Shown here: positions 38,454-53,039 of the stretch, in pieces
How positions within the stretch are numbered: position 1 is the stretch's first letter
Layout of the letters: the number at the start of each line of letters is the position of its first letter
Assembly: GCA_963675495.1 (NCBI GenBank)
Contig: OY776215.1
Location: forward strand, 1,440,001 to 1,504,000
DNA: 64,000 nt
DNA from: an uncultured Methanolobus sp.
Lineage (GTDB): Archaea > Halobacteriota > Methanosarcinia > Methanosarcinales > Methanosarcinaceae
Reading direction: 5' to 3'
Program-made: the position numbers and the translations under genes
The notes under the pieces: model-generated
Seen by the model: the letters and a program-made list of their open reading frames with translations, nothing else
What the model was told of the DNA's origin: nothing
Databases searched by the model: none

Positions 38454-39314
38454 ATGATAAAAGAACTGAACGACAAGAAGACTGAGCTTAGAACCCAGTC
38501 CGAAGAATATAAAGAGAAACGTAACGGGCTTAACGCAGAGGCAAGCACACTTGCATCAAAGCGAAATGAGCTGAACAAAAAGACCAAGGACCTTATCAAC
38601 GAAGCACAGGAATACAAGGTACTCCGTGACGAGAACAACGAGAAGGTAAAGGAAAACAAAGTACTCCGCGATGAGGTCAACAACAAGGCAAACGAAGTAT
38701 TTGCTAAGATAGACCAGATACGCAATGAGAACAACCTTGGCGGCCCTTCGATCAAAGATATCCGCAAGGAAATCGACAGGCTCGAGTTTGCACAGCAGAC
38801 AGAAGTCCTCACAACCAACAAGGAAAGAGAACTGGTCAACAAGATCACTGAACTCCAGAAGCAGTATGTTGTAAAGAAACAGCAACTTGAAGGAAATGAA
38901 GAACTCAAGACACTGTTGACAGAAGCACAGGAGATCAGGGACGAAGCTTCAAATCATCACGCTACACTTTCAGAGTATGCACAGAAGGCACAGGAATATC
39001 ATGACAAGATGATCACTACCTTCAAAGAAGCCGACAAGATTCGCGCAGAATCTGATGCTGCTCACAAAGAATTCGTTCAATTCCAGGAAAAAGCTGACGA
39101 ACAGCACAAGCTCTTCATTGCAGCACAGAAAGAGATCCGCGATATAGACAAGGAACTCCGCAAGATGAAGAAAGGAGATTTCGATGGAAAGAGAGAAGCT
39201 GCCAGAGCAGATGCACGCAAGGATGCAGAAGACATCTTTGATAAGTTCAAGTCTGGTGAGAAGCTTACCATGGAAAACCTTATGGCACTCCAGAGATCTG
39301 GCTTCCTGAAATAA
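38454..39314 (+). CDS. Conserved archaeal coiled-coil protein (COG1340-like)
   Basis: Heptad-rich K/E sequence, LEFAQQTEVL, C-terminal FKSGEKLT. Confidence 0.85.
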   Translation: MIKELNDKKTELRTQSEEYKEKRNGLNAEASTLASKRNELNKKTKDLINEAQEYKVLRDENNEKVKENKVLRDEVNNKANEVFAKIDQIRNENNLGGPSIKDIRKEIDRLEFAQQTEVLTTNKERELVNKITELQKQYVVKKQQLEGNEELKTLLTEAQEIRDEASNHHATLSEYAQKAQEYHDKMITTFKEADKIRAESDAAHKEFVQFQEKADEQHKLFIAAQKEIRDIDKELRKMKKGDFDGKREAARADARKDAEDIFDKFKSGEKLTMENLMALQRSGFLK

Positions 39315-39382
39315 TCAAACTTAAGAGGGTGAACTTCACCCTCGTTCAACTGTTTTTTATTGAAAAATGTTTTTTTAATAAA

Positions 39383-40528
39383 TTATTGCTCTAGTCCAAG
39401 GTGGACTTTTCTAAACTCAGAATCCCTCATAAGACAGGGACCTGAAGTGAAAACAGGGTCTTTGTATATCTTTTTCCATATCGATGCTAAAGATTCATCG
39501 TGAATATTACCATATGGTTTCGGCATACATGCACACGGAAGTACATCGCCTTCAGGAGTTACATGAAGCCATTTCCTGCCTGCAAAACATCCCATTTTTC
39601 TTATGATCTGAGGAATAGGGAAAACGCGTGGTCCTTCAGCGTAAGATGTACGTTCTACAAAATCATCGAACTTTTTCAGGCCTTCGGGTGAAAGGACTTC
39701 ATTCCCATGGTCCAGCCACCTTCCAGTAGGAACTATCTCATAGAAAGAGAGTTCATGCACACCCAGCTCTTTTGCAAGCTCATAAAAATCGTCAAGCTCA
39801 TCAACATTTCTTGGCGAAAGAACAACATACATGCCAACTAAAAGACCGGCATCCAGACCGTTCTTTATGGCATTTACGGCATCATTGAATACACCAGGCC
39901 TTCCACGCATAAAATCATGTCCTTCTTCGTTTGCACTGTCAAAACTCACGCTTAGCATGGAAAGACCAGCATCCTTAAGGCTTGATGCACGCTGCGGAGT
40001 CATCCCCACACCAGATGTGAACAGACCCGCAATTGCGCGTGAACTATCTACATAGCTGATGAGCTCTTCAAGACCGTCATATAACAAAGGCTCGCCACCA
40101 TCGAATATAATGAGAGTGGTGCCCATATTCTGAGTCTGGTCGATGATACTCTTAACAACATCAGGACTGAGCCTTGCTTTGTTTTTAGTATCCGGGAGAG
40201 CACAGTGAATGCATCTGTTTGGACACTCTTCTGTAATTGAGATAGTGATCTGTTCCGGAATGAATTTGCCCCTCATTGCACTCATCTGGCTTGAAACAAG
40301 CCGGTCAAATGCCTTGCTGGGTATAGGAGGCATCCAGGTGGAGTATATTAACTGATCATTTTCCACTTTTGAGGGTTTTGTATCCTCAAATATCTCCATC
40401 ATCTCTGAAACATAAGAACCCATTATGGATGAAGCAATGCCGGAGGTCTTCATTTTCACCCGATCATTCTCTATCTGGGCATATACTTTGAAAAATGGAT
40501 TTTTGTAAAAGTAATATTTGTTCTTCAT
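39383..40528 (-). CDS. Radical SAM protein with SPASM/twitch-like C-terminus
   Basis: Motifs CPNRCIHC, GGEP, CFAG...TPEGDVLPC, GNI. Confidence 0.92.
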   Translation of the reverse strand: MKNKYYFYKNPFFKVYAQIENDRVKMKTSGIASSIMGSYVSEMMEIFEDTKPSKVENDQLIYSTWMPPIPSKAFDRLVSSQMSAMRGKFIPEQITISITEECPNRCIHCALPDTKNKARLSPDVVKSIIDQTQNMGTTLIIFDGGEPLLYDGLEELISYVDSSRAIAGLFTSGVGMTPQRASSLKDAGLSMLSVSFDSANEEGHDFMRGRPGVFNDAVNAIKNGLDAGLLVGMYVVLSPRNVDELDDFYELAKELGVHELSFYEIVPTGRWLDHGNEVLSPEGLKKFDDFVERTSYAEGPRVFPIPQIIRKMGCFAGRKWLHVTPEGDVLPCACMPKPYGNIHDESLASIWKKIYKDPVFTSGPCLMRDSEFRKVHLGLEQ

Positions 40529-40531
40529 AGT

Positions 40532-41689
40532 TCACTTCGTCCTGAAGATAGCCCTGTACGAAAGTATTGAAGAGGGATTGTTTTTCAGTATCATCTTTGA
40601 CACCTGCAATGCCTGATTAAAAGGACTACCTCCAAGTACCTTCAAGTCCTCTCCTTCAAAGACCTTCATCATTTCGTCGATCTCCTTGTCGGTCATTTTC
40701 CTGAGAGTCTCCATGGCAAATCTTCCAAGGTAGTACTCTGTCCTGTATTCAGCATTCCATTTTCTTCTGTATTCAGAAAGGAAGCTCTTTGAAGTATCGC
40801 CTTTTGCAATTGCATCAGCTGCAACATCACCGCACATCTGCCCTGCATGCATACCATACCCGATGCCCGACTGGGCAGCAGAACCACCCACCACCATTAC
40901 ACCATCAGTGACTATATCACCGGGAATTGCAACAATTGGGTCACCACCTACAGATTTGCTGATTATCTTTACTTCATCAAGACCCTTTAATTCCTTGAAC
41001 TTTGCAAGCCAGTCATCAAAGAAATCAGAGACATCACGTCCGTGCCTTCGGACATACATTCCAAGGGTCGCCCTGTTACCACCACATGGTGAATAGGTGG
41101 ATTTCCACCCAGGAGCATGATTACCAACATAGTATTCGAACAGGTCTGGTTCACCAATGCCTTCTGCTTCGATCTCTGCTTCAAGGGACCAGGCTATGTC
41201 CTGTGGATATTTGATAGGTTTCATTCCAAGAAGGGCACTTATCCGTGAGTTTATCCCATCTGAAACAATAACGAGTTTGCACTTGATCTTACCCTTTGAT
41301 GTGCTTACTACAAATCCCCCATCAGCCCTTAGAACATTAAGTACCTCAATTCCGAAGCGAACATCTGCACCTGCTTCCTCAGCCTGATGAATGTAGAATT
41401 CATCGAATTTCTTACGGTCAAGGAAGTAAGCATCACCTTCAAAGATGACATTCTTACCAGAAGGTGATATTATGTAGGCACCTTTCAGGTTTTTGATGAC
41501 ATAACTCTGGTCTACTTCTTCACCTGTGCGGTCAAACATTCCTTTGAAAAATGTGTTTGCCGGATGAGGAGGTACACCTACTGCTTCCTTTTTATCGAGA
41601 AGGATAACTTTACAGCCTTTGGCTGATGCATTCCTTGCTGCCATGACTCCGGCAGGGGAAGCCCCTATTACAATGATATCTGCATCCAT
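40532..41689 (-). CDS. Geranylgeranyl reductase-family FAD oxidoreductase (atypical)
   Basis: DIIVIGASPAG FAD site, LDRKKFD, SDG..S, YYVGNHAPG, GIGYG...G..A. Confidence 0.88.
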   Translation of the reverse strand: MDADIIVIGASPAGVMAARNASAKGCKVILLDKKEAVGVPPHPANTFFKGMFDRTGEEVDQSYVIKNLKGAYIISPSGKNVIFEGDAYFLDRKKFDEFYIHQAEEAGADVRFGIEVLNVLRADGGFVVSTSKGKIKCKLVIVSDGINSRISALLGMKPIKYPQDIAWSLEAEIEAEGIGEPDLFEYYVGNHAPGWKSTYSPCGGNRATLGMYVRRHGRDVSDFFDDWLAKFKELKGLDEVKIISKSVGGDPIVAIPGDIVTDGVMVVGGSAAQSGIGYGMHAGQMCGDVAADAIAKGDTSKSFLSEYRRKWNAEYRTEYYLGRFAMETLRKMTDKEIDEMMKVFEGEDLKVLGGSPFNQALQVSKMILKNNPSSILSYRAIFRTK

Positions 41690-41714
41690 TTTGAACCTCT
41701 GGAACAACTAATTA

Positions 41715-42674
41715 TTACCATAATATACCGGAATATGCCGGAACAAGTATGCAAAGTATTACATCAAGTATAAGAGAACCAAACATGATACCCCTGTATC
41801 TGGAGCCCTGGAGAAACAGCCTGCCTCCACGCTCTTGTGTAGGGTTCTTAATAAAATCAAATGACTGTGTGAGCATCCACCCACCTGCAAGCAGTGCGCC
41901 TGCAAAATATATAGGTCCGATCTTTGCTGTAAGTCCGATGGCAATTGACGCTATGACACCTACAACCCACATTAGAGTTACGAACTTTGAGGTTGCAGGA
42001 ACACCAAAAGTAACCGGAAATGTCGGAGCACCCCGGGCCCTGTCGCCCTCTACATCCCTGGCAACACCAGAAAGAGTGAAACCCCAATCGGTGAAACACA
42101 TCATCAAGCCAAGGAATATAGCAGGAAGAGGGAGTATGGATCCATAATCGGGGCTCTTTAGAATACCGGCTGGATCAAACGCCAGCCAGATACCTATAGG
42201 CACGAGCCCGTAAGCTATCCCCACAGGCACAAAACTAAGAAATGTCATTCTTTTTGCAAGTTTTGAGTATACACTTATAGTAACGACTGCTATCACCAAA
42301 ACCACAAATGATTCAGGATTCAGGTAGAGGGCTGCTATGCTTGCAATTAAGAACAGCACACCTGCATACTTCATAGCTTGCTTACGGCTGAGTTTATTAG
42401 ATACAAGAGGACGATTCGGAAGGTTGATCGTGTCTATATCAACATCACAACAATCATTGTACACATAGGAACTTGTGATTGCGGCATAACCTCCTATAAC
42501 AGCTATAATAAAGAGCATTAGTTCCGGAAACGCACCTGTTGCAAGATAAGAAGCAAGTAAAGCACTTGCAGCAGGGAGGGCAAAATCCATGTCCGCTATT
42601 TCCGGCCTTAACATTTCAAGATAAGGATTTCGTGTTTTAGAGCCTGAAGTCGAAACCAAGTATATCATCACCAA
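41715..42674 (-). CDS. UbiA-family membrane prenyltransferase
   Basis: NDCCDVDID.IN.P.RP and RDVEGD...G..T.P aspartate motifs, YS..K, about nine TM segments. Confidence 0.92.
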   Translation of the reverse strand: MVMIYLVSTSGSKTRNPYLEMLRPEIADMDFALPAASALLASYLATGAFPELMLFIIAVIGGYAAITSSYVYNDCCDVDIDTINLPNRPLVSNKLSRKQAMKYAGVLFLIASIAALYLNPESFVVLVIAVVTISVYSKLAKRMTFLSFVPVGIAYGLVPIGIWLAFDPAGILKSPDYGSILPLPAIFLGLMMCFTDWGFTLSGVARDVEGDRARGAPTFPVTFGVPATSKFVTLMWVVGVIASIAIGLTAKIGPIYFAGALLAGGWMLTQSFDFIKNPTQERGGRLFLQGSRYRGIMFGSLILDVILCILVPAYSGILW

Positions 42675-42768: not shown

Positions 42769-42806
42769 ATCTGAATATCCACAGCATAAATTAAAGATAT
42801 TCAGAT
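42769..42806 (-). terminator. Inverted repeat between tgtA and the UbiA operon
   Basis: ATCTGAATATC / GATATTCAGAT 11-bp arms followed by a T-rich tract on the minus strand. Confidence 0.55.
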
Positions 42807-42824: not shown

Positions 42825-44294
42825 TTACTCACTCTTCGGAGGAACAATTGTAAAGTTATCAAATTCTGCAAGTTTCTCCACCAGAGGATGATCGAACCTG
42901 TCATTCATAAGGAAAGTGAAGGTTGCCTTAGGGTTCAGTTCCACAAGCTTGATGGTATTCTGATAGGCAGTTTCAAGTGATTCATAGTCAGGGGTCCTTA
43001 CAACTTCTGCGTTAAGCGGATAGACCTCTGCAAGCTCCTGCGGATAAGAACCGAATGGTGGTTTGAACATCATGACATTGTCATAGTCACTGTCCTTCTT
43101 TGTTGGGTATGCCCTTATGAGCACAGAACCTTCTATGGTAAGTCTTTCAAGCTGCTTGCCAAAACGCAGAACTTCAGGACGCCTGGCAGACTCCGGACCA
43201 CAGTAGAATAGTGTGGATTTGGTTGAAGGGTCACATTCTTCCAGCCACGAGGAATAAGTGTACATCTGCTTAAGTGCTTCAAGCATTCTTGGATGAGCCC
43301 TGCACCTCTGCTCCACAAGTTCAAGGAGGTTGCCTTCCCATATGGCTTGCTTGACCTCGCGTACCTCTTCAAAAGTTACGTAAAGATTGTGTCTTGCAAG
43401 AAGTTCAGTACAGTTGTGAGCCTTTTTCAGGTCTTCCGCGCTGTGAGCTATACATACAGGACATGAACATGGCAGATACTTGAGCTGGTCTACATGATAG
43501 GTTCCTCTGGAAGTGATGTAACGCCTGTCCTTTGCATACAGGGCATACGCTGCTGAATCAAACAGGTCACATCCAAGAGCAACAGCAAGTGCGAACATCA
43601 TCGGATGTCCTGCACCAAACAGGTGGACAGGTGCTGTTGGGTCAAGTCCTTTCTTGGCTGAAGCAATTACATCAACAAGATCAGAATAACGGTAAGATTC
43701 CATCAGCGGGACCACAGCTCCAAATGGATAGACATCAAAGCCTACTTCTGAAAGTTCCCGGGCACACTCTTCACGGAGATCCTTGTAAATAGCACCCTGC
43801 ACCGGACCTGCCAGGAGCATATCACCTTTTACGAGTTCCCTTGCCTCCTTGAGACGCTGTATTGTGATATCCATATCTTCCTTTGCCTTTTCATAAGACA
43901 CATCAGGGTGTGTGGGAATATCCAGAGGAACGCCAATGTCAGTTCCGATCTTCTGCTGGAAATCGATTATCATCTCATTTGTGACCTCGACCTCACCATA
44001 AACTGACAACTGAAATGAGCCGGAGTCGGTCATTAGAGGACCATCAAAGTCAAGCAATGCGTGCAAACCGTCTTTCAATGCTTTTTCCCTTAATTCGTCC
44101 TTACGGTAAATGATGTATGAATTCGTGATAAGTATCTCAGCACCGAACTCCCTCATTTCAGAGGGTTTTACTGTCTGGATATTAGGATTGATAACAGGCA
44201 TTACAGTAGGGGTTTCAACCACTCCGTGTGGAGTTGTGAGCTTACCGATACGCCCTGCTGCATCCTTATGGATAATATCAAATTTTGATGACAT
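42825..44294 (-). CDS. tgtA: Archaeosine tRNA-guanine(15) transglycosylase
   Basis: Motifs TPTVMPV, MTDSGSFQ, HLFGAGHP, DLFDSAAY, CSCPVC, HNL. Confidence 0.95.
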   Translation of the reverse strand: MSSKFDIIHKDAAGRIGKLTTPHGVVETPTVMPVINPNIQTVKPSEMREFGAEILITNSYIIYRKDELREKALKDGLHALLDFDGPLMTDSGSFQLSVYGEVEVTNEMIIDFQQKIGTDIGVPLDIPTHPDVSYEKAKEDMDITIQRLKEARELVKGDMLLAGPVQGAIYKDLREECARELSEVGFDVYPFGAVVPLMESYRYSDLVDVIASAKKGLDPTAPVHLFGAGHPMMFALAVALGCDLFDSAAYALYAKDRRYITSRGTYHVDQLKYLPCSCPVCIAHSAEDLKKAHNCTELLARHNLYVTFEEVREVKQAIWEGNLLELVEQRCRAHPRMLEALKQMYTYSSWLEECDPSTKSTLFYCGPESARRPEVLRFGKQLERLTIEGSVLIRAYPTKKDSDYDNVMMFKPPFGSYPQELAEVYPLNAEVVRTPDYESLETAYQNTIKLVELNPKATFTFLMNDRFDHPLVEKLAEFDNFTIVPPKSE

Positions 44295-47758: not shown

Positions 47759-48020
47759 TCAATAAACCCCGTCCTAGTATGTTGTTTACGAATAAATACT
47801 ATTGTAATAAAAAGCTACAACCTGAATCATTTGAAAATACGAAAAATAAGGAAAGCATATTCAGCCAATGTCAGAATCAATAAGAATTATCGTCACAAGC
47901 ATGCATACTCAAAACAATATTAGTTTAGATAACAAAAATCAATAATACCATAAAAAAAAATAGATTAGTTCAAGTTAAAATCATTGTAGAAAAAGAAAGC
48001 TAATAGTTAGTGTTGAGTGA

Positions 48021-48143
48021 GTTGGCAGCGATCCAGAGTTCCCGAAGACTCTCATACTTCAGTACAGTAAGGAACGCTGGCAGGCTTATCTTCTGTGTTC
48101 GGGATGGGTACAGGAATTGCCCCGCCGCTATGGCCGCCAATCT
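48021..48143 (-). rRNA. rrf: 5S rRNA
   Basis: Minus strand TTGGCGGCCATAGCGGCGGGG...CCCATCCCGAACAC...GCTGCCAA; ends approximate. Confidence 0.95.
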
Positions 48144-48169
48144 CTCTCATGATGAATTGTAAATGGTAA

Positions 48170-48241
48170 AGCCAAGGTCCGGATTCGAACCGGAATGGAA
48201 TCGCTCTGCAGGCGATTGCGTAGCCGCTCCGCCACCTTGGC
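48170..48241 (-). tRNA. tRNA-Cys(GCA)
   Basis: GCCAAGG/CCTTGGC acceptor stem, U73 discriminator, anticodon loop CTGCAGA, T-loop TTCGAAT. Confidence 0.96.
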
Positions 48242-48344
48242 AATGAGCGATTCATGATTGAATCCATTGAATTTATACTTTACCATAAGATTGCGTATAT
48301 TAAACATGCACATATCAGATTTCGCCTGGACAAAGCAAGACGGA

Positions 48345-51259
<2,915 letters not shown>

Positions 51260-51387
51260 AGAGTCCATCTCACTTTGTCCAGTGAGCGTCTGATATATGC
51301 ATGCATATACACGATCTCATTGCAGCTGTCGTTGCTTCAGCCACTTCATCCTTCCCCGAAGAAATTACTCTTCAGGTGCACTAATAA

Positions 51388-51460
51388 TGGACTTGTTGGG
51401 ATTCGAACCCAAGGCCTCCGCCTTGCAAAGGCGGCGATCTTCCAACTGATCTACAAGCCC
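51388..51460 (-). tRNA. tRNA-Ala(TGC) in the 16S-23S spacer
   Basis: GGGCTTGTAGATCAG...TTTGCAA...TTCGAATCCCAACAAGTCCA. Confidence 0.96.
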
Positions 51461-51564
51461 CTCTTGGACCCCTTTTACAGTGAATCCATGTAATTTTTCT
51501 CGGATCTGACAGTTTTTCGATTTCTGACCGGTTAGTGGTGATGGACTTTGTGTCCATCTTGCTT

Positions 51565-53039
<1,475 letters not shown>

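Follow-up and report, generated by a model that had tools for sequence, protein, structure and literature searches.

A prenyltransferase, flavoprotein and radical SAM operon of Methanolobus proposed as the core of methanophenazine biosynthesis

This work concerns a 64,000-nucleotide stretch of DNA from an uncultured Methanolobus sp. (contig OY776215.1, positions 1,440,001 to 1,504,000), hereafter the window, which corresponds to G000:C1:1440001-1504000 within a closed genome of 2.87 Mb (100% complete; designated G000) and whose proteins are closest to those of Methanolobus. On its minus strand, three adjacent genes encode a UbiA-superfamily membrane prenyltransferase, a flavoprotein with the fold of geranylgeranyl reductases (GGR) and a radical S-adenosylmethionine (SAM) enzyme, here named rSAM0. 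We propose that this trio is probably the core of the pathway to methanophenazine, a prenylated phenazine ether serving cytochrome-containing Methanosarcinia as electron carrier of the membrane; the pathway was termed undeciphered in 2018 (PMC6315138) and again in 2021 (PMC8546582). The proposal draws on the observed gene order, protein families and co-distribution of the trio, on a distribution that mirrors the futalosine (Mqn) pathway of menaquinone biosynthesis, and on the fusion of the corresponding genes into one cluster in other lineages; the product and the role of every enzyme are what we infer.

The UbiA gene lies at 41715-42674 (PF01040, 150 bits), its longest open reading frame (ORF) encoding 319 aa from a TTG codon; the TTG at 42659 is likely the true start, giving the 314 aa that named orthologs also have. 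The gene of the GGR-fold flavoprotein, whose active site is non-canonical, spans 40532-41707 (391 aa from TTG as the longest ORF, with matches to FAD/Rossmann Pfam families), and its true start is likely the ATG at 41689, corresponding to residue 7, where orthologs begin, for a protein of 385 aa. The rSAM0 gene, at 39383-40528, encodes a radical SAM/SPASM enzyme of 381 aa with a family-specific N-terminal domain (PF04055, 82 bits; PF13186, 35 bits). With the ortholog-supported starts, the UbiA and flavoprotein genes are separated by 25 nt, or 7 nt if the longest ORF is taken, and the flavoprotein and radical SAM genes by 3 nt, so that the ORF list and the Pfam matches agree with the original prediction, which had described three tightly packed, co-oriented genes with gaps of about 25 and 3. 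Strict colinearity of the trio was found in 70 of the 73 named Methanosarcinaceae loci with enough flanking sequence, the remaining three keeping all three genes in order, and this clustering exceeds chance.

Distribution of the trio and of the futalosine pathway

Distribution was followed in an order sample of 151 genomes, with families coded f1 to f6, f1 being Methanosarcinaceae, and in a phylum sample of 401 genomes. Labels for other families were taken from the sources of identical proteins, namely "ANME-2 cluster archaeon" for f2 and f3 (ANME, anaerobic methanotrophic archaea), Methanothrix thermoacetophila and M. harundinacea for f7, and "Methanoperedenaceae archaeon" for f4, the latter from the proteins of genome G141, so that genus g11 of f4 should be Methanoperedens. 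In the order sample, UbiA was found in 48/48 genomes of f1, 18/20 of f2, 25/27 of f3, 1/48 of f4, 0/1 of f5 and 0/6 of f6, and the flavoprotein gave the same six counts (48/48, 18/20, 25/27, 1/48, 0/1 and 0/6). The radical SAM search was positive in 48/48, 20/20, 27/27, 1/48, 0/1 and 0/6 genomes of these families, mostly with three matches per positive genome. By contrast, MqnA/MqnD (PF02621) of the futalosine pathway were found in 0/48 genomes of f1, 0/20 of f2, 0/27 of f3, 45/48 of f4, 1/1 of f5 and 5/6 of f6. The distribution of MqnA/D is thus the mirror image of that of the trio, with 0/95 in f1 to f3 against 45/48 in f4. In Methanoperedens, each gene of the trio was found in 0 of the 44 genomes, radical SAM paralogs included.

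In the phylum sample, UbiA orthologs were confined to f1 (52/52), f2 (2/2), f7 (12/12), f10 (3/4) and f33 (3/3), and 328 of the 401 genomes gave no match; named orthologs were also found in Methermicoccus, Methanimicrococcus and Methanolapillus. Methanophenazine is described as the probable carrier of ANME-2a/b/c and ANME-3 in PMC9012536, and Methanothrix is thought to reduce it according to PMC12918732, whereas PMC5244752 reports that Methanoperedens has the futalosine pathway and that its enrichments lacked methanophenazine. The phylogenetic profile that the original prediction had called for therefore came out as it expected: the trio is a marker present in lineages credited with the carrier, and it was found neither in their menaquinone-using relatives nor in the other families of the phylum sample. 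A search for HdrE (PF02665) gave 0/5 in f10 and f33 genomes, yet the control, Methanosarcina acetivorans, which we take to carry HdrE, was unmatched too, and this result was discarded.

Five UbiA-family loci were found in G000, the window gene included, and the latter is the only one of the four unsplit loci to follow the carrier split. A PRK13591-type paralog is patchy (f1 39/48, f2 2/20, f3 4/27, Methanoperedens 22/44), and another paralog was found in 23/48 f1 genomes and in no other family of the order. The fifth locus (G000:C1:1834178-1834899) is split by an in-frame TGA into ORFs of 204 and 105 aa, an interruption that may reflect gene decay, an error of sequencing or recoding.

Properties of the three proteins

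Membership of the prenyltransferase in the UbiA superfamily is clear (PF01040, 150.1 bits against a gathering score of 34.2), and both Asp-rich motifs are present, N73DxxD77xxxD81 and D207xxxD211, with N73, D74, D77, D81, D207 and D211 invariant in 12 orthologs. No NCBIfam equivalog is reached, the best model being PRK12884 (111 bits), and the best PDB sequence match is 6M31 (E 3e-14), a digeranylgeranylglyceryl phosphate (DGGGP) synthase, followed by chlorophyll synthase (E 3e-5). The original prediction had allowed for the protein being simply the DGGGP synthase, an identity that is now ruled out: the DGGGP synthase models NF009521 and NF009522 give 88.1 and 81.8 bits against cutoffs of 296 and 353, the genuine enzyme of the genome lies elsewhere (G000:C1:1301092-1301940, 373.7 bits against the cutoff of 296) and is 28% identical to the window UbiA by BLASTP, and in a tree obtained by a quick search only, 21 UbiA orthologs drawn from all lineages group together as a single clade (SH-aLRT 95), with long branches to DGGGP synthase and the other paralogs. 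The same prediction had seen a departure from the DGGGP synthase pattern in the second Asp motif, in agreement with the BLASTP alignment to the genome's own enzyme, where VARDVEGD stands against REIVKDIEDIEGD with a 7-residue gap, the motif being thus shortened. DGGGP synthase (6M31; NF009521) does share with the window UbiA the fold family and both Asp-rich motifs, and it joins an allylic diphosphate to a hydroxyl as an ether, which is the chemistry proposed here; it differs in that the window UbiA was not found in Methanoperedens, which still must make ether lipids. Scores were also far below cutoff with the heme O synthase models (52-79 bits, cutoffs 210-285) and the MqnP models (55-70 bits against 375-430), and some sources name UbiA orthologs "protoheme IX farnesyltransferase".

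The flavoprotein has the three-domain GGR fold, its model matching the Thermoplasma acidophilum structure 3OZ2 with a Z of 41.0 (rmsd 2.8 over 374 residues) and the Sulfolobus acidocaldarius GGR 3ATQ with a Z of 35.9, SaGGR matches lying at 35-36 and halogenases coming next at about 30. Its best NCBIfam model is TIGR02032, at 127.2 bits and thus under the cutoff of 158.8, and the Pfam search gave no match to GGR_cat (PF22578). In PMC6309074, Cys47 of SaGGR or Cys45 of TaGGR, the YxWxFPx7-8GxG motif and the GGG motif are described as present in all active GGRs. The position of the active-site Cys is taken in the flavoprotein by a Pro, within the loop H48-P49-A50-N51-T52 that is conserved in 13 orthologs; KSTYSP...GMY stands in place of YxWxFPx7-8GxG, and QSG in place of GGG. 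The remark that this GGR is atypical, made in the original prediction, was thus well founded, all three features being replaced. Where the latter two motifs would be expected, these flavoproteins have an invariant PGWKxTxSPxG signature, and the dinucleotide motif reads GASPAG instead of GxGxxG, GASPxG being invariant, Ser included; both features extend to the distant homologs of the compact cluster described below.

In two ANME-2 genera, cofG, encoding a subunit of the F420 FO synthase (429 bits), immediately precedes the flavoprotein gene, the two overlapping at the start of the latter (L109 11477-13841 in G013; G008:C177:2534-4664). Such an arrangement could point to a connection between the flavoprotein and F420, or be due to chance. 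In G013, DNA-repair, toxin-antitoxin-like and cofG genes sit between the UbiA and flavoprotein genes. CofG was dropped as a candidate member of the pathway, a Methanoperedens genome (G003) also carrying it.

As regards rSAM0, the radical SAM and SPASM domains exceed their gathering scores (PF04055, 82 bits against 29.5; PF13186, 35.3 against 21.5), and the cluster motif C102x3C106x2C109 is invariant in 14 sequences spanning all three paralog groups that are presented in the next section. Toward the C terminus, C314, C332 and C365 are invariant in the same alignment, C334 being confined to the rSAM0 ortholog group. A full two-cluster SPASM domain carries more Cys than these three plus one, and the auxiliary domain of rSAM0 may, judging from these residues, be twitch-like, with an iron site that is possibly open. 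The predicted structure (pLDDT 91) matches SkfB (Z 26), SuiB, BlsE, viperin, PqqE and MoaA over residues 65-380 or so only, and GDGT-MAS is among the fold matches (Z 20.6). The protein shares with SPASM/twitch enzymes such as SkfB, PqqE, MoaA, BlsE and AhbC/AhbD the radical SAM core and a C-terminal auxiliary-cluster domain (Z 22-26), and differs from them by its own N-terminal domain, its STWxPPxP motif and its three invariant C-terminal Cys. This N-terminal domain, of about 65-90 residues, is conserved, STWxPPxP being invariant. For residues 1-65, a strand-strand-strand-helix unit, neither Foldseek nor a second fold comparison gave a structural match, and in a protein atlas the N-terminal 92 residues reached a best score of 0.87, under the lead threshold, with no family. 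Within the operon, spacers of 3 and 25 nt are too short for a precursor-peptide gene of the kind found in systems making ribosomally synthesized and post-translationally modified peptides. The best NCBIfam match of rSAM0 is AhbD (124.2 bits against 500), AhbC giving 97.6 against 650, and no equivalog is reached; indeed, none of the three proteins has an equivalog in NCBIfam of June 2026.

The wider gene set and its neighborhoods

Two paralogs of rSAM0, rSAM1 and rSAM2, were found in G000 at 39-40% identity. All three have AhbD and NirJ2 as best NCBIfam matches, and for the radical SAM genes neither MqnC nor MqnE ranks first; the genuine AhbC (741.2 bits, cutoff 650) and AhbD (601.8 bits, cutoff 500) of G000 are encoded elsewhere, the paralogs scoring 76-146 bits with these models. 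The rSAM1 gene (G000:C1:2386658-2387902) abuts a polyprenyl synthase gene whose product scores 338 bits over the full profile of NF040627 GFPS_Meth (cutoff 600), the next model giving 157. This adjacency between rSAM1 and the C25 synthase was observed in 17/17 f1 genomes with coordinates for both, and in both Methanothrix and both f10 genomes tested. The geranylfarnesyl synthase of M. mazei is the only protein tied to methanophenazine in PMC3017947 and PMC8546582. In G000, rSAM1 and the C25 synthase adjoin the hem/ahb cluster and ATP synthase genes, a layout also reported for Methanohalophilus mahii (PMC3017947). The original prediction is supported in part: the profile of the trio favors its pathway assignment, the enzyme roles that it set out step by step stay putative, and, being confined to the operon, it overlooked rSAM1 and rSAM2, the C25 synthase and, probably, one more radical SAM gene.

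Other genes were noted near these loci. Directly upstream of rSAM2 lies a gene for a KaiC-domain ATPase (G000:C1:2228033-2228818), and a fusion of KaiC and small-GTPase domains lies upstream of the compact cluster of genome G218 (L129 3786-4949); the KaiC-like gene was rejected as a conserved neighbor of rSAM2, the adjacency not being kept in Methanothrix or f10. Between ahbD and the C25 synthase gene, a 126-aa membrane-anchored ORF (G000:C1:2385423-2385803) ends in C-P-S-K-Y, which we take to be the signature of archaeal CcmE heme chaperones.

Outside Methanosarcinaceae, the parts were found either scattered or united. Two Methanothrix (f7) and two f10 genomes have orthologs of all of them, scattered around the genome. 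Flavoprotein homologs of 32-42% identity were found in f12 (3/3), f17 (4/4), f19 (7/7) and f21 (3/4) of the phylum sample (E 1e-25), and in f12, f21 and f19 a compact cluster brings together three radical SAM genes of SPASM type that, among the genes of G000, match best rSAM2 (41%), rSAM0 (34%) and rSAM1 (32%), a flavoprotein homolog (39%) that carries the unusual signature of the window flavoprotein, a divergent UbiA (PF01040, 43-45 bits), an NMT1/THI5-like binding-fold protein and a fourth radical SAM gene. The latter is 56% identical to G000:C1:1526099-1527073, a gene of 324 aa about 22 kb past the window end that reaches no equivalog, its best model being the PTO1314 family (135 bits against 306). 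The cluster comprises seven genes in L128, L129 and L132; it is partial in L130 and L133, and L131 has the flavoprotein alone. No MqnA/D was found in the six genomes examined with loci of the compact-cluster type. Since parts that are scattered in Methanosarcinia are contiguous in these lineages, the cluster provides independent neighborhood evidence that they act in one pathway. The G000 match to the NMT1-like cluster protein was rejected as an ortholog, since it genuinely belongs to the SsuA family of transporter subunits (180 bits, cutoff 163.5).

A variant cluster was found in f33 (L102, G389:C270, 8847-14305), where a UbiA ortholog (46%) and a GGR-like flavoprotein (33%) are accompanied by only one radical SAM gene, by a ThiC-family radical SAM enzyme (568 bits) and by another UbiA, which is divergent. 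Two UbiA orthologs that are 50-52% identical to the f33 protein, P0194 and P0204, stand on contigs of 5.6-7.0 kb labeled "bacterium" and "Planctomycetota bacterium"; these contigs are likely mis-binned, although gene transfer may be the alternative.

A further neighborhood was observed in G141, which alone among the f4 genomes has the trio, and where UbiA, flavoprotein and radical SAM genes are adjacent and are followed by a hydrogenase operon, all on one strand (L106, G141:C245, 8716-15682). The genes for the small and large subunits of a [NiFe] hydrogenase and for cytochrome b561 begin 75 nt past the trio, and their order is that of the Vht/Vho layout; the cytochrome b of this hydrogenase hands electrons to methanophenazine, according to PMC11176372. 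A search with the large subunit recovered a pair of paralogs in each of three large Methanosarcinaceae genomes (g4, g7), aligned over the whole protein at 56-60% identity; of two Methanoperedens genomes, one gave fragments only and the other no match. The trio and the hydrogenase thus look like a transferable module of carrier plus hydrogenase. Searches of G141, a genome that is 67% complete, found no MqnA/D, MqnC or MqnE, which are present in four relatives; a true lack of the Mqn pathway in G141 is likely.

Around the operon of the window, tgtA lies upstream of UbiA at 42825-44294 (TIGR00432, 645 bits). In the 150-nt spacer between them, direct reading of the minus strand shows a perfect inverted repeat of 11 bp around a 16-nt loop (42769-42806), with T runs after it, which may be a tgtA terminator. 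The terminator-like hairpin of the original prediction is thus present as a repeat with its T runs, but its folding is energetically unremarkable (-13.7 kcal/mol, z = -1.68, 14/200 shuffles being equally good) and it was not among the sites listed by a terminator scan. At the other end, the radical SAM gene and the convergent DUF7121 gene are 68 nt apart, and an 8-bp G+C-rich hairpin in this interval (39325-39343, minus strand) is a possible operon terminator, the scan giving 5 such sites for 4.3 expected, which makes it weak alone. The DUF7121 gene (38454-39314) encodes a coiled-coil-like protein (209 bits). Among the named Methanosarcinaceae loci with enough flank, it adjoins the operon in 63/69 and tgtA stands upstream in 58/70, a neighborhood that is probably plain synteny. 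Elsewhere in the window, G+C rises to 0.51 at 48001-52000, for about 0.42 in the remainder.

Proposed pathway and alternative readings

From a mechanistic point of view, the C25 synthase encoded elsewhere would supply geranylfarnesyl diphosphate, with which UbiA would O-alkylate 2-hydroxyphenazine or a precursor of it to give an aryl ether. The GGR-fold flavoprotein would then saturate only the proximal isoprene unit, with a regiochemistry opposite to that of canonical GGRs, and rSAM0, rSAM1, rSAM2 and probably the fourth radical SAM enzyme would build or tailor the aromatic head group. As UbiA-type transfer requires an allylic donor, the proximal double bond would be saturated only after transfer. 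Canonical GGRs leave the proximal unit of free diphosphates unreduced, as described in PMC6309074; an enzyme that reduces only this unit would be expected to have a different active site, which would explain the rebuilt site of the flavoprotein.

The radical SAM enzymes are the obvious candidates for the head group by their likeness to MqnC/MqnE of the futalosine pathway and CofG/CofH of F420 biosynthesis. The PhzF family (PF02567) gave no match in the closed genome, the control being positive in 10/14 genomes, so that the head group would need a non-bacterial route; PhzA/B (PF03284) gave no match in the genome either, but here the control matched nowhere. It is possible, though still doubtful, that the phenazine nucleus is built by a radical SAM route unrelated to phz, in which rSAM0, rSAM1 and rSAM2, as anciently diverged twitch-type paralogs, would act together with the fourth radical SAM enzyme, with UbiA and the GGR-fold flavoprotein adding and reducing the tail and an NMT1/THI5-like enzyme taking part in some lineages; the seven-gene cluster would then be a portable and complete cassette, and a third carrier pathway beside Men and Mqn.

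Three known systems offer a comparison. CnqPT1, a probable UbiA-superfamily member likened to the window UbiA by function and not by sequence, uses a short prenyl donor for a bacterial secondary metabolite, in contrast with the C25 respiratory carrier considered here. This enzyme of Streptomyces sp. CNQ-509 is described in PMC4650096 as a membrane-bound, non-ABBA phenazine O-prenyltransferase of the marinophenazine pathway, and provides a functional precedent for UbiA. The Mqn pathway resembles the compact cluster in its parts, with several radical SAM enzymes (MqnC/MqnE), a UbiA protein (MqnP) and a binding-fold protein (MqnA/MqnD), and presumably also in that it yields a prenylated redox carrier of the membrane. 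It differs in that the proteins are not homologous at family level, the binding-fold protein of the cluster being NMT1/THI5-like and not PF02621, and we know of no GGR-fold flavoprotein in it. Finally, ChlG/ChlP combine, like UbiA and the flavoprotein, the attachment of a polyprenyl chain by a UbiA enzyme with its subsequent reduction by a GGR-family flavoprotein. They differ in that the window proteins score 59 against 313 and 77 against 343 with their models, the ChlG acceptor being moreover a tetrapyrrole carboxylate and the ChlP reaction a reduction of the three distal bonds.

Several observations weigh against the methanophenazine reading. The nearest characterized relatives of UbiA are makers of membrane-lipid ethers, and the flavoprotein, judged by its residues, lacks every canonical GGR motif and has a GxSPxG nucleotide motif, its reductase activity being an assumption. 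With regard to the wider set, rSAM1 has no synthase neighbor in two f2 genomes, and C25-synthase homologs (E 1e-45, phylum sample) were found in 0/2 f2 and 0/3 f33 genomes, but in 63/64 genomes of f9 and 10/15 of f15, which have no trio; the C25 synthase was therefore dropped as a phylum-wide marker, being non-discriminating at this threshold. No UbiA ortholog was found in f12, f17, f19 and f21 despite their flavoprotein homologs. One compact-cluster genome holds proteins labeled "Met12", and an organism of that name is reported as having no Mcr, HdrDE or Fpo, so that the wider family is not tied to known methanophenazine-dependent enzymes; these small-genome lineages may make a related carrier that serves some other function. 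As to distribution, methanophenazine in most of the lineages credited with it is an inference in the papers and not chemistry. Related genomes are non-independent, and the anticorrelation at order level may trace back to only one or two events; the loss of any gene at the base of Methanoperedenaceae would produce the same pattern. The independent supports are G141, f10, f33 and the fused cluster, of which G141 is the sole sampled genome of its genus and also has no CofH-type match where its relatives show one.

Some of these observations would suit a carrier that is methanophenazine-like and not methanophenazine in some lineages, with the trio only attaching and reducing the side chain and the radical SAM paralogs sharing an unrelated role. 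The very divergent UbiA of the compact cluster, the occurrence of this cluster in the Met12-labeled genome, and the f33 variant with its single radical SAM gene, ThiC-family gene and second UbiA are in line with such a reading, as is the fact that the role given to the radical SAM enzymes is drawn from neighborhood and co-distribution. We nevertheless consider it unlikely: the radical SAM genes of the cluster are one-to-one best matches of rSAM0, rSAM1 and rSAM2, and all three co-occur with UbiA in the order sample, for which one shared pathway is the better fit.

The lipid-ether relatives of UbiA raise a different prospect, that of a lineage-specific membrane lipid or structural isoprenoid, UbiA prenylating a glycerol or polyol acceptor, the flavoprotein setting the saturation and the radical SAM enzyme modifying the chain. 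Such a role would accord with the best matches of UbiA, which are lipid-ether synthases (PRK12884, the DGGGP models at 82-88 bits and 6M31), with the closest folds of the flavoprotein, which are lipid reductases, and with the presence of GDGT-MAS among the fold matches of rSAM0. It appears quite improbable, however, as it predicts neither the mirror image with Mqn, nor the adjacency of a Vht-type hydrogenase in G141, nor the pairing of rSAM1 with the C25 synthase, and the canonical GGR motifs are all missing from the flavoprotein. To our knowledge, C25 lipids have not been described in Methanosarcina, which also counts against it. Radical SAM modification of archaeal lipids is documented (PMC9433317, PMC8941075, 10.1101/2025.10.20.683597), but the lipid enzymes bind B12 as far as 10.1101/2025.10.20.683597 describes them, and rSAM0 has no such domain; they were rejected as an explanation of rSAM0, being of a different class. 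Hydroxyarchaeol synthesis, for its part, is assigned to another gene family in PMC10821996.

Very improbable, lastly, is another prenylated cofactor that co-occurs with the cytochrome chain, for example a prenylated tetrapyrrole on which the radical SAM enzymes would act like AhbC, AhbD and NirJ: the ChlG/ChlP-like logic of a UbiA followed by a GGR-family reductase, chlorophyll synthase as second PDB match, AhbD/NirJ2 as top models of all three paralogs, the place of rSAM1 and the C25 synthase beside the hem/ahb cluster and the "protoheme IX farnesyltransferase" label of some orthologs would favor it, but genuine AhbC and AhbD are encoded elsewhere, the paralogs and UbiA score far below the Ahb and heme O synthase cutoffs given above, a heme role leaves the Mqn complementarity unexplained, and Methanoperedens, cytochrome-rich by the account of PMC13748539, has UbiA and the radical SAM paralogs in 0/44 genomes.

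The methanophenazine reading thus stands as the probable one, and titles and abstracts of papers since 2024 that mention this carrier gave no pathway among the matches listed, in a search outside which most subscription journals lie. Much of the global acetate- and methyl-derived methane is handled by archaea, methanotrophs included, whose membrane electron carrier is methanophenazine, and the present analysis offers a short gene list for the synthesis of this compound that can be tested in genetically tractable organisms, comprising UbiA, the flavoprotein and rSAM0, the C25 synthase and rSAM1, rSAM2 and perhaps the fourth radical SAM gene. The trio provides a genomic marker to tell a phenazine-type carrier from menaquinone in uncultured archaea, and its specificity seems higher than that of the C25-synthase homolog that has served until now and that also gives matches in lineages lacking the other genes. 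The choice of carrier alters the redox potential and energy yield in models of anaerobic methane oxidation. Should the head group indeed be made by radical SAM chemistry, phenazines would gain a new route of biosynthesis.

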